From a virus (taxonomy: Duplodnaviria > Heunggongvirae > Uroviricota > Caudoviricetes): a stretch of 13,501 nt of DNA. The notes under the pieces were generated by a model that saw only the letters and a program-made list of their open reading frames with translations, was not told the origin of the DNA and searched no databases. Position 1 is the first letter of the stretch. Each line of letters opens with the position of its first letter. Positions 600 to 13,464 of this stretch are shown here, one piece after another. The stretch is from the IMG/VR virus record IMGVR_UViG_2734482784_000005, positions 1 through 13,501 of that record; one strand, 5' to 3'. The translations under genes and the position numbers were made by a program.

Positions 600-1103
600 G
601 ATTCATTAAGAGATCTGATCAATACAGGTTCCAGCTATCAATCAGGAACACTGAGGAGGAAACCAGTCACCTTTTAGCCTCTGATATTGGTTTCACTTAG
701 TGATTATGTTGTCTATGTGCCAACTATGAACTATCTTTTCTCAAAACCTGCTACTGCAAAATGGATATAAGATGTCACAGACGGACTTGCTGATTGTTGT
801 TTTTACTCTGGGCATTTTAGCCTTTGGCTATTCCATATGGTTCATTTCGAACAGAATACTTTGCTCTATATTTCATAGACTTACAAAGAATATATGAATT
901 GGGATGGTATAGACCCAAATTCATGGTCATTGCCCCTCGACGTCGGAAGGTACTTACAGATCATCTTCGCTCTTAACCTATCACATCGGCACCTACTCCA
1001 TGATGTAACAGCTCAGACCAGAAATATCTGGAAGCTTTAGGCATATTCTTGGAAGATAGACGAGCGCAAAGACGCACACAGCAATGATGTTATGTAGTAT
1101 TTT

Positions 1104-1135
1104 CCCCTTGAGTGTGCCTGCTCAAGGGGGTTTTT
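1104..1135 (+). terminator. rho-independent terminator (plus-strand orientation)
   Basis: Stem CCCCTTGAG (1104-1112), loop TGTGCCTG, stem CTCAAGGGG (1121-1129), then G plus TTTTT (1131-1135). On the minus strand the hairpin is followed by A-rich sequence, so the plus orientation is favoured. Confidence 0.55.
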
Positions 1136-1172
1136 ATCGCCGTATTGTACTGGCAAATATTTGTAAATAGTC

Positions 1173-1201
1173 TTCACCCCCACGCCTGTCACATCGGCCA
1201 C
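1173..1201. repeat. direct repeat copy A (displaced invertase 3-prime end)
   Basis: TTCACCCCCACGCCTGTCACATCGGCCAC matches 1751-1779 at 25 of 29 positions. On the minus strand it encodes VADVTGVGVKTIYKYLP, a second copy of the invertase C-terminal HTH. Confidence 0.7.
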
Positions 1202-1719: not shown

Positions 1720-1932
1720 TCAAGTCGCCGGGAGGTACTTGTAGATTGTTTTCACGTCCACGCCTGTCACATCAGCCACCTGCTGCCGGGTAGCGCCGTT
1801 CTCCAGCATTCTGCGGCACCGCTCCACCACTTCTTCAGTCATTATCCGGCGGCGGCCGCCGACTCTCTCCTGCTCCATCGCTGCGGACCGACTCGGATGC
1901 ATTCGGCAAATTCTAGGCCGTGATTTTTCCAA
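1720..1932 (-). pseudogene. Hin/Gin/Pin-family serine DNA invertase remnant (C-terminal HTH only)
   Basis: GGRRRIMTEEVVERCRRMLENGATRQQVADVTGVDVKTIYKYLPAT aligns well with the C-terminal DNA-binding domain of Hin/Pin as I recall it (GGRPRAIT...GHPRQQLA...STLYRYFPA). The N-terminal catalytic domain is absent and the ORF begins with a non-ATG codon. Confidence 0.55.
1751..1779. repeat. direct repeat copy B (inside invertase remnant)
   Basis: TTCACGTCCACGCCTGTCACATCAGCCAC; partner of 1173-1201. Confidence 0.7.
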
Positions 1933-2722: not shown

Positions 2723-4786
2723 TCAGAAAACGTTAATACGAAAAGCGGGGAGCCAGTCGTAAAGAGTCACGGATGTGTCATACACCCATATGATTCCAGC
2801 GGAAGATCGAACACACCCTCTTGCACCAAGAGTCCGCCCGGAAGGTTTTACAGATGCGCCGCTCTGAAGTGGGTTTTCTGCTGTCGCATAGGAAACGCGC
2901 CCAAAACGTCCAGAGGGGGCGGTCGCCAGGTTAATCAGCACGCCCTTGCCGTCCGAGCTGATCGCGATGCTCGATATAGCAGGTGGAGCACCAGTCTCAT
3001 CCGTGTAGCTAAAGCCGTAATTGGCCAGACCGGAGGTGTTGATCGTAGTCGTGTCCAGCACCAGGTTCGTATACGCTGGGACATTGATTTGTATCTGCGT
3101 GGGTGAGTTCCACACGAAACTGGTCGGAACCATCCCTGACCAGCCGCTCGTAAACCACTCCTGGAGAAGCGCTCTCGCCACAGCTGCTCCGCGCCGGTTC
3201 TGGCCCGCACACGTCAAGTGCAGACCGTCTGAAATAAAATCGTACTGGTACAAACTATTGACCAGCCTGAATTGCTCTTTTCCGTGCAATCGCGTCGACG
3301 CCAGTCGCGCGTACTGGCCTGTAAATGCACCATGCCCGTCATTGACATACCCCAGCTGGGTAATGGCGATAATCGGCGGTTCGTTTTGACCCGTTCTTGC
3401 GATGATGTCGCTGGTGATTTGTCTCTGGTACTGCCTCATCCGTGATTCATACATTCCTTCTCGTAATCCTGACCAGTCCTCGTCGGACTCTCCCTGCATC
3501 CAGTCAACGCAGAGAACAATCGGCAGCCAGCCGCGTGCTTTACAGGCCGTTACGCAGTCTTCGATTGAATCGAGCAGATACTGATATACCTGGTTACCCC
3601 GTTTCTGGTACTCGTAAGCCTGACCAGACTGCGCACATACGATTGATAGCGTGCGCGGCATGATTCCGGTAGCTGCAGCCATATCGCGAATGAAGGTGTT
3701 CGCGAGGCCGCTTGCGGCCGTTTCTTTATCTGTCCCACTTACTGCCTCAACCAGTGGCACCAGAGTAGTGCTGCGTGTCCCTGTACGCCTAACCCCGCCG
3801 CTGAGCATGAAAGCGTTATCAGGATATATCGGCGTTGCTGCGACAATGGTTTGATCGGCGTCAGGACAATATCCTCGAGCGTTGGATTGCCCAGCAGTCA
3901 CAAAGATAAAACATACAGGCACTGTCTCTGAGTAGGGGTACACAGTAGACCCTGACAAATGAAGTCCATACTCAGGGAGCTGGTTGGCATCATCGTCGCC
4001 ACCACCACCGCCATTTCCGTTATTAACAGCTACCAGGCCACCGTCTGAGTAAATCCAGTGCTTCCCACCAACCGTATAAGCTTCAACGATCTGGTTTGTG
4101 GTTGAATCAACCGTCATCCGCCACACTTTTTCACCGCCAATAAACTGCGGTATAGAACCCTCCCGGCCCAGCGCATAGAGTTCGGATTCTTGTTGGGTTA
4201 AAAGTTCGTAATATTTTCCGTCAGGACCGATTTGAATTAATCTGCCGCTTGTATTTAAAAATGGAGCCACGCGGGAAGTCTCCGGATCATATGCTGCCAG
4301 GGTCACGCTGTCTGGCGATACCTGGTATGCGTAGTCGTCACGAACCATCCGCCGTCCGGTTGGCTGCAGCGTTCCAGCGAGGTTGATATACTCATCGGCC
4401 AGAGAGCTTCCGTCCTGACTGCGGACATAGGTTGTTGAACCTGCCGGAATATTCGCAATATCCGCCTGCGCCGCCGCCAGCGTCATGTACTGCCGGCTGA
4501 GAGGGATCAGGTTTTGGCGGGCTTCATCAATAACAGCGTCGGTAGCAGCTGCCATTTTTTTAGTAGCCCCAATTATCGTATCCTGGGCGTTACCAAAACG
4601 ATCTATAAAAGTATCGCTTTCGCTGTTCAGGAAATCATCGTACGCCAGGGCGTTATCATTCAGATCCTTCATGCTATTTGAAGGTCTTGGATTGCCGGTA
4701 TTATATCTTTTGTCCATACCTGTTCCTGTCTTCATCTTTTCAATGAAGCAATTAAGATTGACGCCCCGCCCCTTCAGGGCTAACAT
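2723..4786 (-). CDS. phage tail-fibre/tailspike-like protein with central SGNH/SASA-type carbohydrate esterase domain
   Basis: Long ORF. AGQSNARGY (GQSN motif typical of the SASA/sialate-O-acetylesterase SGNH family) and a downstream DGLHL (DxxH) motif. A long N-terminal region and a C-terminal beta-rich region fit a receptor-binding tail protein. Start is uncertain: ATGs at 4786, 4735, 4717 and 4672 are all possible; the 4717 ATG has AGGAACAGGT upstream. Confidence 0.6.
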   Translation of the reverse strand: MLALKGRGVNLNCFIEKMKTGTGMDKRYNTGNPRPSNSMKDLNDNALAYDDFLNSESDTFIDRFGNAQDTIIGATKKMAAATDAVIDEARQNLIPLSRQYMTLAAAQADIANIPAGSTTYVRSQDGSSLADEYINLAGTLQPTGRRMVRDDYAYQVSPDSVTLAAYDPETSRVAPFLNTSGRLIQIGPDGKYYELLTQQESELYALGREGSIPQFIGGEKVWRMTVDSTTNQIVEAYTVGGKHWIYSDGGLVAVNNGNGGGGGDDDANQLPEYGLHLSGSTVYPYSETVPVCFIFVTAGQSNARGYCPDADQTIVAATPIYPDNAFMLSGGVRRTGTRSTTLVPLVEAVSGTDKETAASGLANTFIRDMAAATGIMPRTLSIVCAQSGQAYEYQKRGNQVYQYLLDSIEDCVTACKARGWLPIVLCVDWMQGESDEDWSGLREGMYESRMRQYQRQITSDIIARTGQNEPPIIAITQLGYVNDGHGAFTGQYARLASTRLHGKEQFRLVNSLYQYDFISDGLHLTCAGQNRRGAAVARALLQEWFTSGWSGMVPTSFVWNSPTQIQINVPAYTNLVLDTTTINTSGLANYGFSYTDETGAPPAISSIAISSDGKGVLINLATAPSGRFGRVSYATAENPLQSGASVKPSGRTLGARGCVRSSAGIIWVYDTSVTLYDWLPAFRINVF
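4758..4786 (+). promoter_or_regulatory. putative sigma-70 promoter for the HTH/acyltransferase operon
   Basis: TTGACG (4758-4763), 17-bp spacer, TAACAT (4781-4786); upstream of the 4819 start. Confidence 0.35.
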
Positions 4787-4818
4787 CGCCTTACGTGTTT
4801 AAACGGTTAAATAAGAGA

Positions 4819-5082
4819 ATGATTTTAATAAATAAATACACCCCTCCAACGCAGGAAGATTTAGCCAGACTGAAATCCGCACTAAATTACTCCGGAAACC
4901 AAATGGCAGGGCTCGCAGGTGTAGCCAGCGATAGCCAATGGCGGAAATACACTGGCGGAGAGAGCCCCAGGGTAATGTCAAGACACATACTGTTTTATAT
5001 TGCAGCTCAGCTTGTTCTGTCTGATGAGCAACTTAACAATGTAATAAATAAAATGCGCGATATTGGCGCGGAGATAAAATAA
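4819..5082 (+). CDS. small XRE-like HTH protein, 87 aa
   Basis: ATG at 4819 (the track start at 4795 is GTG). The segment NQMAGLAGVASDSQWRKYTGGE resembles an HTH_XRE recognition region. Its stop overlaps the acyltransferase start (TAATG). Confidence 0.5.
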   Translation: MILINKYTPPTQEDLARLKSALNYSGNQMAGLAGVASDSQWRKYTGGESPRVMSRHILFYIAAQLVLSDEQLNNVINKMRDIGAEIK

Positions 5083-6173
5083 TGCTTGGCCTAATAAGGT
5101 TTTTTTTGGCATCGTGCGTCATTGCTTTTCACTTAACGGCTCGCATACCTGCACTTGGCAACTTTGCAGTGAATTGCTTCTATGTTATTAGTGGTTTTTT
5201 AATAACATACATTTTGCATGAAACATACAAGTTCAACTTCTCTATGTTTTGGAAAAATAGAATACTGAGGTTATTCCCGGCATATATATTTTTTCTCGTC
5301 ATGGGCTTTCTTATTATAAAATTAATTCCATCCGCAAAGGAATTCCACTCAAACTGGACAGGCAATTTCTTACCTGGAGATTTATTAGGAAACCTCTTAA
5401 TCTTCCCCTGGGCTTTCCTTTCTGATAATGCTGTAGCAAATCCATTCGGTGCCTTTTCATCCATTTATCACTTTGCTATTGATGGTAATAGATTCAGAAT
5501 AGTCACATCATCATGGTCAGTGGGTGTTGAGATAACATGTTATTTTTTATTGTGGCTTTTCATAGCCCGAAATAAATTTACAGCCATTACGTCGATTCTG
5601 CTTTCACTGCTTTATCATGCTTACGTATATGTAGTACACCATTCTTTTGATATGGCGTATTTCCCATTCCTTGCTGCAACACTTCCTTTTAGCATGGGTT
5701 CTCTGGGTTATTTTGCCCATAGAAAGTTCAAAGCTATGTATCTTTCTCCACACAAAGCTTTTTTAATAACATTTATTTGCATCGGGATTTTTATTACCAA
5801 TTGGCATTTATATACAATTAATCCATTAGGTCAGTACAACATAATACTTTACTACACCAATAATGTAATAGCATTGTTTACAACCCTGGTATTATTAAAA
5901 ATAAAGACAAACATACATCTTGAGAAAATACTCAAGTGGTTTGGTGACCTGGCCTATCCAATTTTTCTTTGTCAATATTTTGGTGGATTTCTAGCATGGC
6001 TTGCTATTGGTGGTGAAAATCGTGGCTTATCCATCTTTTTATTAGGCTACCCAATATCAATTGCACTTGGGATCGTTTGTGTAATATTAATAGACAAGCC
6101 ACTAATTAAAATTAGAGCAAAAATAAGGGCGGACGCTCAAAGCAAAAATAATCAGGAAAACTCTTCAAGGTAA
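5082..6173 (+). CDS. acyltransferase family 3 integral membrane protein (O-antigen/polysaccharide O-acetyltransferase-like, OafA/Oac type)
   Basis: 363 aa, multiple hydrophobic helices, NCFYVISGFLITY (the FxxISGF motif of the acyltransferase-3 family), RBS GGAGA 8 nt upstream. Markedly AT-rich relative to flanking genes. Confidence 0.8.
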   Translation: MLGLIRFFLASCVIAFHLTARIPALGNFAVNCFYVISGFLITYILHETYKFNFSMFWKNRILRLFPAYIFFLVMGFLIIKLIPSAKEFHSNWTGNFLPGDLLGNLLIFPWAFLSDNAVANPFGAFSSIYHFAIDGNRFRIVTSSWSVGVEITCYFLLWLFIARNKFTAITSILLSLLYHAYVYVVHHSFDMAYFPFLAATLPFSMGSLGYFAHRKFKAMYLSPHKAFLITFICIGIFITNWHLYTINPLGQYNIILYYTNNVIALFTTLVLLKIKTNIHLEKILKWFGDLAYPIFLCQYFGGFLAWLAIGGENRGLSIFLLGYPISIALGIVCVILIDKPLIKIRAKIRADAQSKNNQENSSR

Positions 6174-6994
6174 ACTAAACCATTCGCTCCTTTTCCTGAT
6201 GAATAGTTACCATTCCCCCCGGCACCACCTGAGCCGGGGAAACCGCCATCATCGCCAGAACTACCGAAGTGGCCATTGCCACCCGTTGATGAAAATGCAG
6301 CTCCTCCAGCCCCGCCAATAAAAGCATCAGAACCATAATACAGACCACCTTGAGATATTCCGCCAGTAATATTTAAAATGTTCCCGCCACTTCCGATACC
6401 TCCAGCAGGAACTGTAGCCCCGCCACCACTCCCTCCAGTAGCTGAGATTAAACTCCCGAACCTTGTATCACCACCATTCCCGCCTTTAGACGAGACACCA
6501 GCAGCAACAGCACTGCCACCAGTACCTATCGTCACAGATATAGTTTCGTTATCAGAAATATTAAATAACCCTTCCGAAAATCCACCAGCACAACCTCCAG
6601 ATGCGCCCACACTAACTGGAGCATTCTGGCCACCTCCCCCCGCTCCCCAAACTTTCACCCGCACTCTTTTCGTCCCTTTAGTTGGAGTGTAAGTCCCTGA
6701 CTTAGTAAAGGTGACAATATTAAGCAGGCGACCGCCACCAATCGCTTTAAGAACCTGTGAATCATCATCAGGATCAAGCTCAAGCCCCGCGCCCTCAACA
6801 ACGTTTATGTGAACCTCGGCCAGATCTGAGGATGGCCGGGGAACGGCCCGCAGTTGCTCAATAATCGCCGCTCTCGCTGCCTGCTGGAACTTGCGCCCTG
6901 TCTCGCTTACCAGATGCCTGCCTTTCAGCGGTCCCTTGCTCGGGGCGCGCCAGTAACTATTTACGCTCGGTGGAAATGGTAAAGTCAGTTTCAT
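6152..6994 (-). CDS. RusA-like (Holliday junction resolvase family) N-terminal domain fused to a glycine-rich C-terminal region, 280 aa
   Basis: N-terminus MKLTLPFPPSVNSYWR matches the RusA signature (LPWPPSNNRYYR in E. coli RusA). The C-terminal ~170 aa are Gly-rich low complexity. Strong RBS AAGGGGG upstream of ATG 6994, and only 9 nt after the dam-like stop. Confidence 0.6.
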   Translation of the reverse strand: MKLTLPFPPSVNSYWRAPSKGPLKGRHLVSETGRKFQQAARAAIIEQLRAVPRPSSDLAEVHINVVEGAGLELDPDDDSQVLKAIGGGRLLNIVTFTKSGTYTPTKGTKRVRVKVWGAGGGGQNAPVSVGASGGCAGGFSEGLFNISDNETISVTIGTGGSAVAAGVSSKGGNGGDTRFGSLISATGGSGGGATVPAGGIGSGGNILNITGGISQGGLYYGSDAFIGGAGGAAFSSTGGNGHFGSSGDDGGFPGSGGAGGNGNYSSGKGANGLVYLEEFS

Positions 6995-7870: not shown

Positions 7871-8323
7871 TCACTTCTTTTTGCGTGAAAAAAGCGTGAT
7901 GATTGCGGCAATCTCTTCTTCACGAGCTGCCAGGTGACGGCGGTGATGCACCATGATTTCTTCGGCCTCGTGCCTTTCAATAACGCCATCTTCAAGCGCC
8001 TGTTCGATAATCTGATCAACCTGCCCCCTGGCGGCAGAGGTACGCATTGCCCGGCTAAACAAGTCCACGCGGTCCAGTTCTTCCAGGTGCGGAACATCCA
8101 CCAGCAGAGCACCACGACGGCGGGCAAAATATTCAGCCAGGTGAGATGTATTCGAGATGTCCTCCATCGCTTCCAGTTCGCTGACTTCGAAGAAACGACA
8201 GCCGTTTTTCTCGTAAAGGTTGTTGTTAAACTGCGTCACCGTCATTCCCAGTGCGCCAGCCATTGCTTCGCGCCCACCTGGATATGCTTTGCACATAGAT
8301 TTCACGACTTCTTTGAGGTTCAT
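7871..8323 (-). CDS. CII-like/YdaT-like regulatory protein, 150 aa
   Basis: ATG at 8323 preceded by AAGGAG. Lies directly downstream of the Cro-like gene, the position YdaT occupies in Rac-type prophages. Family assignment is by architecture and loose similarity. Confidence 0.6.
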   Translation of the reverse strand: MNLKEVVKSMCKAYPGGREAMAGALGMTVTQFNNNLYEKNGCRFFEVSELEAMEDISNTSHLAEYFARRRGALLVDVPHLEELDRVDLFSRAMRTSAARGQVDQIIEQALEDGVIERHEAEEIMVHHRRHLAAREEEIAAIITLFSRKKK

Positions 8324-8351
8324 ACCTACTCCTTTCAAACTCGGGTGGTAG

Positions 8352-8615
8352 TTACAAATTTGATGCAGTGACATTAAGCTTTCGCATTGCTGCACCTCTT
8401 AAATAGGCCCAGTCAATGTCAGGACGAAGCTCTTCGCAGGTGACAGCACCACCAGTAGCTTTCTCAATCGCAGGACATCGTTCCGCAGGTATTTGCCTAA
8501 TGCCCGTTGTCCATTGATTCACTGTTGGTGATGAGATGCCTAGATTCCTTGACAAAGCGGCTTGTCCCCCAACAATGCGGCAGGCTTCACTGATTGCTTC
8601 AAGGCTACTTCTCAT
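8352..8615 (-). CDS. Cro/YdaS-like HTH regulator, 87 aa
   Basis: ATG at 8615 with AGGA upstream. The segment LSRNLGISSPTVNQWTTGIRQIPAERCPAIEKATGG is typical of YdaS/Cro-type HTH proteins. Divergent from the cI-like gene across an operator-containing intergenic region. Confidence 0.65.
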   Translation of the reverse strand: MRSSLEAISEACRIVGGQAALSRNLGISSPTVNQWTTGIRQIPAERCPAIEKATGGAVTCEELRPDIDWAYLRGAAMRKLNVTASNL

Positions 8616-8649
8616 AAACGGATTCCTATGATTTCCACACAAGCAGATA

Positions 8650-8724
8650 TTAGGCTAAGCCTAATAAACAATCAATAGGAATTGCCTAAGCTATAGGTTA
8701 TGAGGATTATTAGGCAATGCTTAG
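8650..8724. promoter_or_regulatory. OR-like operator region between divergent cI-like and cro-like genes
   Basis: Perfect palindrome TTAGGC-TAA-GCCTAA at 8650-8664, a related half-site GCCTAAGC near 8684-8691, and TTAGGC-AAT-GCTTAG at 8710-8724. Confidence 0.5.
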
Positions 8725-9193
8725 TGGTAAAGAATTGGGCCGAGCGATCGAGCAGGCCATAGACAAGAAGCTTTCAATAGGTTCTGCCAAGAGTAAGGCG
8801 GAAATCGCACGTCATTTCAAAATAAAACCCCCATCAATCCATGACTGGATCAATAAAGGCTCCATATCGAAAGAGAAGCTACCAGAGCTTTGGAACTACT
8901 TTTCTGATGTTGTGGGCCCCGAGCACTGGGGACTAAAGGGATACCCGCTAACTGATACATGTGAGCCCGCAACAGATCCCATAGTTAAAAATGGTTCTAT
9001 TGACGAGCTCTATAATAAGGCTTCGAGAGAAAAAAAGGCTATCATTGATTTTGTCCTCTTAGAGCAAGGACAGCGTATACCTGGCTGGGTAGATAGCGAT
9101 GCTAAAGCATATTTAGACTCATTAGAGATGAAGATAAGGAGATGGGCAGAGCAGGAGGAAGATGGAAAAAAACAAACGAAAGCCAGAGCTTAA
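8717..9193 (+). CDS. cI-like/RacR-like prophage repressor, 158 aa, HTH with no S24 peptidase domain
   Basis: N-terminal HTH (KAEIARHFKIKPPSIHDWINKGSI), RBS GAGGA 10 nt upstream, divergent to the cro-like gene. Size and gene order match the RacR-YdaS-YdaT arrangement. Confidence 0.65.
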   Translation: MLSGKELGRAIEQAIDKKLSIGSAKSKAEIARHFKIKPPSIHDWINKGSISKEKLPELWNYFSDVVGPEHWGLKGYPLTDTCEPATDPIVKNGSIDELYNKASREKKAIIDFVLLEQGQRIPGWVDSDAKAYLDSLEMKIRRWAEQEEDGKKQTKARA

Positions 9194-9363
9194 GCTTATA
9201 TGGTCTAACGGACAATATCTCTAAGCTCCATACATGTTAAAAGCTCTGAGATTGATTCGCTTGCATAACTCAATCCCTGTGGGGGATTGGCTTGTATGAA
9301 GCCTATCCGGGATTGTGACTTGCTTTGATTTAACAGCAGGTTTTCACTTTGCATGGAGGATGC

Positions 9364-10518
9364 ATGGAAAACTTCAAAGTACGTCTTAAAAATCACATTG
9401 AACATGTTAAAAATGTTAGAGAACACTGCACAACGGAAGAGACAACCAAGCAGGCTTTGATACTTCCTTTTTTGGACATCCTAGGCTTTAACGCATATGA
9501 TCCGCAAAAAGTCAAAGCTGAATATGGTGCGGACTTCCCTGGTGTGAAAGTGGGTGAGCGTGTAGATTATGCTCTATTCTGCCAAGGTGTTCCCGTTATG
9601 TTTATTGAGGCCAAAGGTTGTAAAGAAAAAATGGACAACCATTGTCCTCAATTATCTAGGTATTTTAATTCTACTCCTGAGGTGACAATATCAGCAATTA
9701 CTAATGGAATTGAATGGCGCTTTTTTACGGATCTCAATGAAAAAAATATAATGGATTCAACGCCATTTTTACGAATCATGATGGATGACATTAAAGATTC
9801 TGATGCTGAGCAATTATTTAGATTCCGCCATGACAAATTCAAACCAGAGGCCCTAAGAACCCTTGCAGAAGAGAGTGTTTATATTTCTGCATTTGTTAAA
9901 GTCGTGAGTACAAGCCTTCGGGAAGTAGATCATGAATTTGTTAGATATGTTGCAGGACGAGCAAATATTGGTCGTCAATTAAATCAAAGATTTATAGAAA
10001 CAATAACTCCATTGGTGAGGCAGGCCGTAGAGAGGTCAGTAAGTGAAATGGTTGTTTCTGGTCTTTCATCAAGAACATCTATTCCTGAATTAGAATCCCC
10101 TGCTGATGTAACTGAAAATAATGTAATTGATGAGCGCGCAGATATTGTCGATGCAGAGAACCCCAACATAGTAACAACCTATAATGAAAGAATTTTATTT
10201 GAAAAAATCTGTTCTATTATAGGCCCTGCATACGAACTTCAAGCCAAAGATACAGAGTCCTATTACTCTATTCTTTTCCAAGGAAAAACAAACCGCTGGC
10301 TGGTTCGCTATTATGACAAGAAGAATCGCTCAAACATACAGTTACCAATTGATATCAATGAAATAACCGGTAATGAAATTAAAAGAGCCGGACTTGAACA
10401 TGATAACAATCGTATTTTCATTGAACATCCCGAGGATGTATTAAGGATTTCAGGTTTAATCCTTGATTCTTTACAATATGTACAGAATGATGAGAATTTC
10501 AGAAAGCGTCGTCCATAA
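9364..10518 (+). CDS. standalone HsdR-N-type PD-(D/E)xK nuclease domain protein, 384 aa, with uncharacterised C-terminal domain
   Basis: ATG at 9364 preceded by GGAGGA. N-terminal ~130 aa follow the type I restriction HsdR N-terminal nuclease pattern: TKQALILPFLDILGF ... RVDYALF ... VMFIEAKG ... QLSRYF ... ITNGIEWRFF (D...EAK...Q..Y..TNG..W). AT-rich. Located between the cI-like gene and the pL/OL-like site. Confidence 0.7.
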   Translation: MENFKVRLKNHIEHVKNVREHCTTEETTKQALILPFLDILGFNAYDPQKVKAEYGADFPGVKVGERVDYALFCQGVPVMFIEAKGCKEKMDNHCPQLSRYFNSTPEVTISAITNGIEWRFFTDLNEKNIMDSTPFLRIMMDDIKDSDAEQLFRFRHDKFKPEALRTLAEESVYISAFVKVVSTSLREVDHEFVRYVAGRANIGRQLNQRFIETITPLVRQAVERSVSEMVVSGLSSRTSIPELESPADVTENNVIDERADIVDAENPNIVTTYNERILFEKICSIIGPAYELQAKDTESYYSILFQGKTNRWLVRYYDKKNRSNIQLPIDINEITGNEIKRAGLEHDNNRIFIEHPEDVLRISGLILDSLQYVQNDENFRKRRP

Positions 10519-10547
10519 TCATAAAAACACTAGCTTTATTTCACACA

Positions 10548-10575
10548 AATCCCGCTTATGCGGGATTTTTTTTGA
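10548..10575 (+). terminator. rho-independent terminator downstream of the nuclease gene
   Basis: Stem AAATCCCGC (10548-10555), loop TTAT, stem GCGGGATTT (10560-10568), followed by a T-run (10569-10573). Confidence 0.7.
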
Positions 10576-10588
10576 CCGCCGACCAACA

Positions 10589-10631
10589 TTAGGCTAAGCC
10601 TATTGACATGACATTAGGCATAACCTAACAT
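10589..10631 (+). promoter_or_regulatory. pL-like promoter with two OL-like operators
   Basis: TTAGGC-TAA-GCCTAT at 10589-10603 and TTAGGC-ATA-ACCTAA at 10614-10628, the same palindrome family as the cI/cro intergenic region. TTGACA (10604-10609), 16-bp spacer, TAACAT (10626-10631). Confidence 0.5.
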
Positions 10632-10927
10632 CAAGTGAGTCTGATGGACTATGTCATCTTGGCGGCACCAGTTTCCCCATTGTTTCTGGTTCGCCCTTTT
10701 ACAAAAGACATCAGAGCACCACCGAGTGACGTGCCCTAACACAATCCGCCCGAGCGGATTTGCGGCCGCAGGTGCTCTTCTGTGTTGTGTGGAGAACTAA
10801 CGTACCGCCATTGCAGTGGCGGTCCCCCATCAGCAAGAAATTTTAACCAGCTATTCACCCATTCTCATGGGTTGGGTTGCTGCACCCTAAATTTACGCGT
10901 TGCAGAGCGTCAGATGGAGAACAAAAG

Positions 10928-13374: not shown

Positions 13375-13464
13375 TGGCGGAGAGAGGGGGATTTGAACCC
13401 CCGGTAGAGTTGCCCCTACTCCGGTTTTCGAGACCGGTCCGTTCAGCCGCTCCGGCATCTCTCC
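13375..13464 (-). tRNA. serU: tRNA-Ser (anticodon CGA), 90 nt including CCA
   Basis: Minus strand reads GGAGAGATGCCGGAGCGGCTGAACGGACCGGTCTCGAAAACCGGAGTAGGGGCAACTCTACCGGGGGTTCAAATCCCCCTCTCTCCGCCA: 7-bp acceptor stem, CGA in the anticodon loop, long variable arm typical of tRNA-Ser, TTCAAAT T-loop. Confidence 0.9.

Follow-up and report, generated by a model that had tools for sequence, protein, structure and literature searches.

The window analysed here, a stretch of 13,501 nucleotides from IMG/VR record IMGVR_UViG_2734482784_000005, belongs to a decayed E. coli remnant prophage and contains an intact gene for a 384-residue HsdR-N-type nuclease directly after a prophage repressor gene. We propose, with a probability of about 0.5, that the protein is a lysogen-expressed, ATP-independent, and methylase-less restriction-like endonuclease that acts against superinfecting DNA. 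Intact and conserved copies of the gene occupy the same repressor-linked slot in temperate phages of at least four phyla (Pseudomonadota, Bacillota, Actinomycetota, and Fusobacteriota), and therefore the gene probably provides anti-phage defence given by the prophage.

The open reading frame of the nuclease spans positions 9349..10518 of the plus strand if it is read from a TTG codon. The start at the ATG codon at 9364, which gives the coding region 9364..10518 and confirms the protein length of the preliminary description, is backed by the GGAGG motif listed in Table 1 and by the N-termini of homologues, which read MENFK or MESFK. The N-terminal domain matches Pfam family HSDR_N (PF04313; E = 2.2e-14; 54.2 bits relative to a cut-off of 25.1), and HSDR_N_2 is matched at its cut-off. 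Residue D68 of the VDYAL motif (nucleotides 9565-9567), E82 and K84 of the FIEAK motif (nucleotides 9607-9615), and Q96xxxY100 are invariant in an alignment with 14 relatives of 27-48% sequence identity. The earlier identification of an HsdR-N-type nuclease by its DYAL and IEAK motifs was thus correct. The full-length protein matches the 'endonuclease' PHROG 4225 (E = 2e-152; residues 1-376 aligned to positions 1-357 of the 357-position profile). HSDR_N-type profiles and phrog_4225 were the only matches of the nuclease in Pfam, PHROG, and PADLOC, and the profile check for a known non-defence family, recommended in the preliminary description, assigned none in Pfam, NCBIfam, or PHROG. The 5,027 PADLOC models left the nuclease unmatched, and PADLOC v2 does not include the model FS_HsdR_like; distant members of the family gave weak matches of their N-terminal domains to type IIG models.

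Neither a helicase domain nor hsdM or hsdS was found in the window among the open reading frames or by Pfam and PADLOC searches, in agreement with the initial claim that the nuclease has no helicase or methylase partner. NCBIfam likewise gave no helicase family for the protein. The homologous loci examined, including those of Salmonella, Morganella, Yersinia, and Klebsiella, also contained no hsdM or hsdS. The only methyltransferase of the window is encoded by an orphan Dam-like gene of the D12 class in the opposite, early-right operon. It was rejected as a cognate partner, because it is part of a divergent lytic operon and is absent near several homologues of the nuclease. The hosts carry Dam anyway.

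The part of the protein beyond the nuclease domain, which could previously not be assigned, is composed of an all-helical connector, an acidic disordered linker, which varies in length across the family, and an α/β domain. Fold comparison, which is the sole basis of the assignment, confidently predicts a YdhG/YjbR/MotA-CTD-like fold for residues 263-384. Sequence searches with the C-terminal part, using Pfam for 14 diverse members and the PDB for a single sequence and two profiles, produced nothing credible. The domain is not basic, contains the conserved residues T271, T272, E275, K295, D296, Y300, W312, and R315, and is kept in 115 of the 128 full-length cluster representatives. Relatives without the usual C-terminal domain have either a DUF4357 tail (E = 5e-18 and 5e-20; with a weak match to RAMA) or a weakly SeqA-C-like one. 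Both kinds of module have links to restriction enzymes and methylated DNA. The predicted fold points to a role in DNA or ligand recognition and not to a housekeeping function.

The surroundings of the nuclease gene have the layout of the lambda region cI-rexAB-timm-OL/pL, since the gene is followed by a terminator and then by an operator-flanked promoter (Table 1). The preliminary description placed the gene in a rex-like slot that lies between a repressor and an OL/pL-like site, and this is borne out by gene order, terminator, and promoter. The promoter consists of the hexamers TTGACA (10603-10608) and TAACAT (10626-10631) with a spacing of 17 nucleotides. Operator sites of the TTAGGCnnnGCCTAA type start at 8650, 8675, and 8710 between the repressor and cro genes, and at 10589 and 10614 on the flanks of the promoter. 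There are six matches of this type in the window compared to 0.48 expected, and none of 200 shuffled sequences reached six, which agrees with the view that the same operator palindrome is present in both regions. In addition, a 41-nucleotide block is repeated between the repressor/cro region and the OL/pL-like region. The terminator, a feature that had also been predicted before, is the putative end of the repressor-nuclease transcription unit by analogy to lambda t-imm.

Table 1. Positions of the features of the immunity region and of the nuclease domains within the window
Feature	Position	Strand	Details
CII-like (CP76/YmfL-type) regulator, immunity cassette	7871..8395	-	Pfam Phage_CP76 3.9e-14; PHROG 101 CII-like activator 6.3e-45
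Cro/YdaS-like regulator, divergent from repressor	8352..8642	-	Pfam YdaS_toxin 3.7e-30, P22_Cro 5.2e-07
OR-like region, three operator-like palindromes	8650..8724		8650-8664 (perfect TTAGGCTAAGCCTAA), 8675-8689, 8710-8724
RacR-type prophage repressor, 158 aa, without S24 domain	8717..9193	+	NCBIfam NF049929 RacR equivalog, 254 bits (cut-off 200)
Repressor-nuclease spacer, 170 nt	9194..9363	+	Shine-Dalgarno GGAGG at 9355-9359
Nuclease aa 1-140, HsdR-N/RecB-type PD-(D/E)xK domain	9364..9783	+	E25, D68, E82-A-K84, Q96xxxY100
Nuclease aa 141-236, all-helical connector	9784..10071	+	
Nuclease aa 237-262, acidic disordered linker	10072..10149	+	pLDDT <50 for 237-255; gap-rich columns; pI ~4.05
Nuclease aa 263-384 and stop codon, predicted α/β YdhG/YjbR/MotA-CTD-like domain	10150..10518	+	
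Intrinsic terminator	10547..10576	+	stem 10547-10568 (9 bp, 5 GC pairs), 4-nt loop, T-run
OL/pL-like element	10589..10631	+	operator-like sites 10589-10603 and 10614-10628 around promoter

The repressor has relatives in E. coli that carry the annotation racR. In the spacer that separates it from the nuclease gene, terminator-like sites and plus-strand promoter-like sites were looked for and none were seen. The fold of the spacer is not unusual in comparison to shuffled sequences (z = -1.44), and its length of 169-172 nucleotides is constant in all RacR-linked copies. An Rfam scan of the window matched only a tRNA, and we propose no small RNA or riboswitch. We infer from the absence of signals in the spacer that racR and the nuclease gene are probably co-transcribed. 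The nuclease gene is AT-rich, as was noted before, with a G+C content of 35-38% versus 49-58% in the flanking phage arms. Its composition is consistent with the suggested acquisition of the gene, but the idea of an independent cassette has to be refined, as the copies of Klebsiella and E. coli move together with their neighbours in a fixed cII-cro-racR-nuclease cassette, in which the spacer constantly measures about 171 nucleotides.

The linkage to a repressor extends far beyond the window. At 51 of the 56 informative IMG/VR loci, a repressor-type open reading frame is located directly upstream on the same strand, at a distance of 8-172 nucleotides with one exception. These repressors belong to at least ten sequence types, among them RacR-type, HTH-only, and several HTH+S24 lineages. 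The arrangement is also present in Salmonella, Morganella, Yersinia, and a Mu-like Salmonella prophage, and it holds at about 30% identity in S. pneumoniae IPP25, Corynebacterium Juicebox, Enterococcus EG-TP1, Fusobacterium FNU_1P, and Clostridium CWou-2020a. Homologues in repressor operons, down to about 30% identity, occur in lambdoid, Mu-like, pneumococcal, enterococcal, corynebacterial, and fusobacterial temperate phages. The repressor-nuclease pair persists alone, without phage genes, in Yersinia, and there are orphan copies of the nuclease gene without an adjacent regulator or phage. In phages of Pasteurellaceae and Porphyromonas the homologue has a different location and adjoins Q/NinG/RusA, baseplate genes, or HicAB, and a 34%-identical homologue ends a Prim-Pol/D5_N satellite-like element. 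A scan of GTDB found an adjacent repressor-like open reading frame in only about 26 of 80 species genomes, which is a lower bound from a crude classification of one candidate upstream open reading frame per locus with small home-made HMMs, at loci found with an alignment of closer homologues.

The comparison of the immunity slot among related prophages, proposed in the preliminary description, revealed that its content is variable. Sister E. coli prophages integrated at the same att site have the slot empty or filled with another gene, and sieB occupies the interval behind racR in the Rac prophage of K-12. Among relatives from E. coli and IMG/VR, there were five independent events in which an insertion sequence hit either the nuclease gene or its leader. 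The repeated disruption may indicate that the gene is costly or toxic, which fits an abortive or toxic effector and a restriction enzyme equally. A preference for AT-rich DNA is, in any case, a general property of IS1 and IS5-type elements. The gene contains an 18-bp inverted repeat (9604-9621 / 9635-9652), and in strain AB66 an IS1 element is inserted in its loop. The repeat was considered as a self-immunity DNA element of the BstA/aba kind, and this was rejected because its pairing is not kept in homologues, in which 6-14 of the 18 positions pair.

Purifying selection on the nuclease is strong. The dN/dS ratio is about 0.02 relative to homologues with 92-94% identity, with synonymous sites near saturation, and dN is two to four times higher in the C-terminal domain than in the nuclease domain. 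About 7,000 sample blocks list a protein identical to it, and most of them come from Klebsiella pneumoniae. The nuclease is matched at E<=0.001 by 3,542 clusters (50% identity), and an architecture of 330-430 residues is common to the full-length representatives among the matches listed. Homologues are present in 19 of 50,697 phage records.

In the mechanism that we propose, the resident prophage would express the nuclease in the lysogenic state, by transcription from the maintenance promoter through racR and the nuclease gene to the terminator. The nuclease, whose gene comes second in the repressor operon, would damage incoming DNA of superinfecting phages, and perhaps also other mobile DNA, and thereby protect the lysogen. 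The N-terminal HsdR-N/RecB-type domain would be the cutter, and the C-terminal domain, tethered to it by the helical connector and the flexible acidic linker, may be the target-recognition or sensor module. In the absence of a partner methyltransferase, the distinction between self and non-self DNA would be based either on a feature that marks the invader DNA, such as base modification or an unusual DNA structure, in a type IV-like manner, or on activation of the nuclease during infection. The defence or exclusion role suggested in the preliminary description is thus a predicted one with strong circumstantial support: the association with at least ten types of repressor across several phyla and kinds of phage architecture, the variable slot, and the lack of a non-defence family among the profile matches.

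The effector may, with lower probability, function in abortive infection. The nuclease would be held inactive, perhaps with the C-terminal domain as an autoinhibitory sensor, until a phage protein or another cue of infection triggers it to degrade both host and phage DNA, so that the cell dies before phage release, an outcome similar to that of Rex. The slot shared with lambda rexAB, self DNA without protection by a methyltransferase, the faster evolution and non-basic character of the C-terminal domain, and a fitness cost suggested by the five insertions are consistent with such a toxic protein. However, no trigger or partner is known, the domains that replace the C-terminal one are associated with DNA or its modification and not with protein sensing, thousands of Klebsiella genomes stably retain the gene for the identical protein, and the general preference of IS1/IS5-type elements for AT-rich DNA could explain the insertions. 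It is improbable that the nuclease serves the phage itself, in recombination, excision, breakdown of host DNA, or lysis-lysogeny control, and is placed beside the repressor for its regulation. Very strong purifying selection and the deeply conserved position in lysogeny modules, next to the repressor, an ImmA-type metalloprotease, and the integrase, could be explained in this way. Yet the distribution of the gene is patchy: few phage records contain it, and it is missing from closely related sister prophages that share the backbone. The repressors and phage types with which the gene is associated are unrelated to each other, it persists without any phage as a pair with the repressor or as an orphan, and it is isolated from the early-left operon by the terminator.

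We regard it as very improbable that the nuclease is the toxin of an addiction or post-segregational module, checked by the repressor or another prophage product, that penalises loss or decay of the prophage. The pair kept alone in Yersinia and the recurrent insertional inactivation in the decaying E. coli remnant could be read in this manner, but the nuclease is paired with repressors of many types that are unrelated to each other, which makes a specific protein-protein antidote relation unlikely, some copies have no adjacent regulator, and the window itself is a remnant prophage with an intact gene. Finally, RefSeq names the protein 'type I restriction endonuclease', according to which it would be an R subunit, either whole or as a decaying fragment, and the Pfam match supports the name in part. 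Nevertheless, this identity is refuted by the missing defining domains, and its probability is negligible. The name is a misnomer because the protein has no helicase motor, no hsdM/hsdS partner, and no PADLOC match; moreover, the HsdR equivalog NCBIfam NF008521 gives 14 bits relative to a cut-off of 729, the compact architecture recurs in the family, and the low dN/dS ratio speaks against this identity.

The endonuclease that we propose shares features with several known systems. With type I HsdR proteins (EcoR124I HsdR and the Vibrio vulnificus HsdR fragment 3h1t) it has in common the HSDR_N-type nuclease with D, ExK, and QxxxY, but it has 384 instead of about 1,000 residues and lacks the SF2 translocase, the C-terminal HsdM-contact domain, and hsdM/hsdS, and it has an α/β C-terminal domain of its own. 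The N-terminal nuclease and helical connector are also found in type IIG/IIL enzymes (DrdV and BpuSI; MmeI-like), which, in contrast, contain a fused gamma-class methyltransferase and a target-recognition domain, so that the nuclease has no built-in self-protection. Lambda rexAB and Salmonella BTP1 bstA sit in the interval after the repressor and before the early-left operon, the position also of Rac/P22 sieB. Like these genes, that of the nuclease is accessory, variable among related prophages, and ends at its own terminator before the OL/pL-like site. However, the nuclease is related neither in sequence nor in fold to RexAB, SieB, or BstA; it is a single soluble protein, whereas Rex is a two-protein membrane system, SieB a membrane protein, and BstA of the KilA-N type. 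The resemblance to type IV restriction endonucleases lies in a single polypeptide with a nuclease and a separate putative recognition domain, no cognate methylase, and paralogues with DUF4357/RAMA or SeqA-C-like tails, but the C-terminal domain, with its predicted YdhG/YjbR/MotA-CTD-like fold and no Pfam match, does not appear to be a reader of a recognised kind (SRA, EVE/YTH, Mrr-N winged helix, or DUF3427).

A literature search on the HsdR-N-type family found no experimental work on any member. The DefenseFinder entry FS_HsdR_like is said to be a single-gene system from a Klebsiella PICI, reported by Fillol-Salom et al. in 2022. It may be the same family, in view of its Klebsiella origin, the designation of a single gene as 'HsdR-like', and the 34%-identical homologue of the satellite-like element. 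If so, the anti-phage activity would have been shown before, and the novelty would be limited to the prophage context and the domain analysis. The DefensePredictor supplement contains 'HsdR N-terminal domain-containing' predicted novel defence genes, and those shown have 825-971 residues and other architectures. COG4748, a candidate group for the protein, was placed with HSDR_N/HSDR_N_2 in a PD-(D/E)xK classification under the note 'Type IV Restriction Endonuclease (predicted...)' (PMC3424549) and counted elsewhere among restriction endonucleases (PMC8649781). The anti-phage protein Nhi (nuclease-helicase immunity) is described as an N-terminal HsdR-like nuclease joined to an SF1 helicase (PMC11232893), but the nuclease described here lacks the SF1 (DUF2075) helicase and has no PADLOC Nhi match.

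The C-terminal assignment, the dN/dS ratio, the abundance of the protein, the cross-phylum linkage to repressors, and the replacements of the C-terminal domain are new. We speculate, tentatively, that the nuclease could be the first recognised member of pan-bacterial 'lysogeny-module nucleases', methylase-free and ATP-free enzymes wired into repressor operons in four phyla, which would read a feature of foreign DNA, for example a hypermodified base, by the YdhG/MotA-CTD-like domain, unrecognised until now, and which, given the thousands of Klebsiella pneumoniae genomes with the exact protein, might be a widespread and uncounted determinant of phage host range. If the nuclease is an anti-phage protein, it would be a very common uncatalogued defence of K. 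pneumoniae and other pathogens, in view of its abundance and the lack of a PADLOC model, and it would bear on phage-therapy host range and on censuses of defence systems. Its compact combination of nuclease, linker, and reader would contain a new candidate reader fold, which may be specific for modified bases, the structure of DNA, or a phage protein. The position directly after a prophage repressor and before a terminator and early-left promoter would then provide a searchable cross-phylum rule for defence genes expressed by lysogens.

The nuclease gene lies in a decayed lambdoid prophage inserted at tRNA-Ser(cga) (13375-13464), and the same 13.5-kb element adjoins mtfA in ten complete E. coli genomes. 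The order proposed in the preliminary description, in which a repressor is followed by a 384-aa protein, a terminator and a pL-like promoter, was borne out (Table). The palindrome TTAGGCnnnGCCTAA, which had been noticed as an operator common to both ends of this region, is present in three copies between the repressor and cro and in two copies around the downstream promoter. Its six matches in the window compare with 0.48 expected, and none of 200 shuffles reached six. The repressor/cro intergenic region and the downstream promoter region also have a 41-nt block in common. The G+C content of the nuclease gene is 35-38%, versus 49-58% in the prophage arms. The initial observation was therefore correct in every detail, and the immunity region has the same anatomy as the cI-rexAB-timm-OL/pL region of phage lambda. 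This layout leaves the nuclease gene under the promoter of the repressor and insulated from pL, linked to the one part of the prophage that is transcribed in lysogens. The pL-like promoter is separated from the first early-left ORF, which encodes a phrog_15091 protein and precedes a ParB-like one, by an untranslated leader of ~290 nt (10632-10925) with the GC-rich hairpins ATCCGCCCGAGCGGAT (10745-10760) and CCGCCATTGCAGTGGCGG (10805-10822). No N-like gene was evident. The isolated temperate phage KpF5 and many of the Klebsiella copies carry an additional rdgC gene within this leader interval.

Table. Features of the immunity region, the nuclease protein and the insertion events.
Feature	Position	Strand	Remark
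CII (CP76/YmfL)-like gene	7871-8395	-	immunity region
YdaS/Cro-like gene	8352-8642	-	immunity region
RacR-type repressor	8717-9193	+	NCBIfam RacR equivalog, 254 bits (cut-off 200)
Spacer, repressor to nuclease gene			170 nt
Nuclease gene	9364-10518	+	384 aa
Intrinsic terminator	10547-10568		plus T-run
TTGACA-17-TAACAT promoter	10603-10631
Nuclease core	residues 1-140		AlphaFold model
All-helical connector	residues 145-238		AlphaFold model
Disordered acidic linker	residues 237-255		AlphaFold model
Compact alpha/beta domain (C-domain)	residues 260-375		AlphaFold model
IS3	9300-9307		in spacer
IS1	9626-9634		just past ExK motif
IS1	10465-10473		in last helix
ISKpn26	9424-10529		replaces most of gene; seven genomes
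IS3-family element	codon 276		fifth event; 93%-identical IMG/VR copy (L049:4831-6000)

The nuclease gene is a real, selected gene and not a fragment of hsdR. Comparison with homologues of 92-94% protein identity yielded dS of ~1.8-2.0, dN of ~0.04 and ω of ~0.02, and the gene is thus under strong purifying selection; dN of the C-domain is 2-4 times that of the nuclease domain. Among 50%-identity clusters, an exhaustive HMMER scan matched 3,542 at E<=0.001, including 366 at E<=1e-30, and the listed full-length representatives have one common architecture of ~330-430 aa. Neither a helicase motor nor an hsdM or hsdS gene was found in the window or in any homologous locus inspected, in agreement with the absence of such partners noted earlier. 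Given this absence, the gene's own architecture and the purifying selection, 'type I restriction endonuclease', as the protein is called in RefSeq, is a misnomer.

The Pfam families HSDR_N (E=2.2e-14) and HSDR_N_2 match residues 25-128 and nothing else in the protein is covered, whereas PHROG 4225 ('endonuclease') matches it end to end (E=2e-152). These profile matches place the protein in the HSDR_N nuclease superfamily and in PHROG 4225, and the predicted nuclease domain was thus recovered. Neither PADLOC nor NCBIfam has a family covering the protein. Columns invariant in an alignment with 13 relatives of 27-48% identity include E25, K29, D68, E82, K84, Q96, Y100, N114, G115 and D123, which cover the PD-(D/E)xK triad (D68, E82, K84) and the RecB-type QxxxY motif. 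The latter is required for cleavage by EcoR124I HsdR. The HsdR-N/RecB-type active site is intact, and a second domain is tethered to it in the AlphaFold model (mean pLDDT 85.5). The coding region contains an 18-bp inverted repeat (9604-9652) just past the ExK motif, in which 16 of the 18 positions can pair and whose loop holds the IS1 insertion of AB66. Since homologues keep only 6-14 of the 18 positions, this repeat is probably incidental.

The C-domain, modelled alone from 57 sequences (pLDDT 96.4, pTM 0.87), has a predicted YdhG/YjbR/MotA-CTD-like fold that none of the sequence methods recognises. It is mildly acidic, contains the conserved residues T271, T272, E275, K295, D296, Y300, W312 and R315, and is kept in 115 of 128 full-length representatives. 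Putative binding of DNA or another ligand is deduced only from fold resemblance, the class including the DNA-binding MotA-CTD and YjbR/MmcQ, annotated as DNA-binding. Ten members without the C-domain were examined: in two it is replaced by DUF4357 (E=4.5e-18 and 5.4e-20), with a weak additional RAMA match in one of them, and in one further member the tail weakly resembles SeqA-C (E=3e-4, short of Pfam's cut-off). These representatives (P0149, P0184 and P0154) keep the nuclease and connector; the C-terminal module is exchangeable in the family. SeqA is known for methylated-DNA recognition, and Pfam describes RAMA as tied to restriction enzymes and methylated-DNA recognition. A DNA-reading role of the C-domain is favoured because its fold class holds DNA binders and the replacement tails are of the restriction/methylated-DNA type.

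The exact 384-aa sequence is encoded by KpF5 and is listed for 6,984 sample blocks and for no fewer than 1,000 contigs, most of them named as Klebsiella pneumoniae. Each of the eight Klebsiella contexts shown and every IMG/VR copy that has a RacR-type repressor keep the cII-cro-racR-nuclease cassette unchanged, with a spacer of 169-172 nt. Outside the cassette these prophages are mosaic, and their integration sites are of two or more kinds (next to icd; tRNA-Ser/mtfA). Homologues of 55-85% identity lie 8-140 nt behind non-RacR repressors. These include HTH-only proteins (122-136 aa) as well as five or more diverged lineages of the HTH+Peptidase_S24 type. A repressor-type ORF is located directly upstream on the same strand at 51 of 56 informative IMG/VR loci, with representatives checked against Pfam. 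The homologue in a Mu-like Salmonella prophage comes after the c-type repressor. Homologues of ~30% identity take the corresponding repressor-side place in phages from other phyla: S. pneumoniae IPP25 (repressor - 127-aa ORF - nuclease - integrase), Corynebacterium Juicebox (repressor gp34 - gp33), Enterococcus EG-TP1 (DNA-binding protein - metalloprotease - nuclease - ... - integrase), Fusobacterium FNU_1P (CI - nuclease - integrase), Clostridium CWou-2020a and, apparently, Lacticaseibacillus P7.1. A repressor-like ORF is adjacent at ~26 of 80 GTDB species genomes, a lower bound set by a crude classifier.

The gene is not behind the repressor but in other moron positions in Pasteurellaceae prophages (L050-L053, L112-L134), where it lies beside Q-like/NinG/RusA genes or after a baseplate-hub or lipoprotein gene, and in Porphyromonas phages (L183), where it directly follows a HicA/HicB toxin-antitoxin pair. 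In Yersinia pseudotuberculosis and relatives (L012-L014:5214-7158), an HTH+S24 repressor and the nuclease persist together as a two-gene unit in an ordinary chromosomal setting, with 6 kb around them free of phage genes, and in Edwardsiella tarda (L176/L177:6001-7176) the homologue stands alone in the chromosome. These loci suggest retention after prophage loss.

The nuclease gene is accessory, and a homologue is present in only 19 of 50,697 phage records. Comparison of the same slot in related prophages, as had been suggested, showed that, in sister E. coli prophages sharing the ParB-integrase arm and att site, a LexA-type repressor precedes either an empty slot or a reverse-strand 171-aa ORF, and that ydaG, ydaF and the exclusion gene sieB fill the interval after racR in K-12 Rac. 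The nuclease gene is intact and repressor-linked in the window but in none of the ten complete E. coli genomes carrying the remnant; four independent IS events were mapped among these genomes (from L002, L003, L079 and L078). The recurrent disruption may reflect a cost of nuclease expression or simply a preference of these IS elements for AT-rich DNA. The acyltransferase gene, which is equally AT-rich, was free of IS insertions at the annotated loci examined.

That acyltransferase (Acyl_transf_3, membrane; 5082-6173, +; 34-37% G+C) follows a 95-aa ORF divergent from the gene of a 687-aa SASA (sialate O-acetylesterase-type) protein (-). The block (2723-6173), in which PADLOC found no match, is likely a lysogenic-conversion block. 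A 280-aa ORF (6152-6994, -) with a RusA-like start (MKLTLPFPPSVNSYWR...) and a glycine-rich (Gly_rich_2) domain looks like a deletion scar from the removal of Q, lysis and most structural genes. Between the CII-like gene and the Dam-like methylase, the element also lacks the replication genes found in KpF5 and the Klebsiella copies, and it is therefore a defective remnant. ORFs 1037-1201 (-) and 1720-1932 (-), beside tail-fibre-like genes, have a common ...ADVTGV.VKTIYKYLP... segment, and the latter matches the resolvase/invertase HTH_7 domain (E=1.9e-09); they may be what remains of an invertible tail-fibre switch of the Hin/Gin type.

We propose that the nuclease would be made in lysogens and would cut the DNA of superinfecting phages, and we give this reading of a lysogen-expressed defence nuclease a probability of about 0.5. 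The gene is an analogue of rexAB, sieB and bstA in position and probable role, and its slot is that of rexAB, as first proposed. Membership tests ruled out a type I R subunit, a type IIG enzyme, Nhi and Rex. With neither a motor nor a methylase, the enzyme would have to discriminate through its C-domain or by being activated during infection. The most similar architecture is that of single-chain type IV or type IIS-like enzymes, although the second domain is unrecognised here. In a classification of PD-(D/E)xK nucleases, HSDR_N, HSDR_N_2 and COG4748 are in one row, with function notes including 'Type IV Restriction Endonuclease (predicted...)' (PMC3424549). A DNA-reading role agrees with this row, membership of COG4748 being putative; a specifically type IV-like enzyme is a tentative reading. 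Action by abortive infection is a still less probable variant of the lysogen-expressed defence nuclease.

A literature search found no experimental study of the nuclease family. A 34%-identical homologue (L080:1-6158) ends a run of small ORFs after a Prim-Pol/D5_N primase-helicase gene, a satellite-like layout (P4-like/PICI-like). It is possibly linked to the PICI-borne 'HsdR-like' defence gene, DefenseFinder 'FS_HsdR_like', which we take to be a single-gene system from a Klebsiella PICI. Should FS_HsdR_like belong to this family, an anti-phage activity would already be established, and the novelty would lie in the repressor-operon rule seen across phyla, the assignment of the domains and the prevalence.
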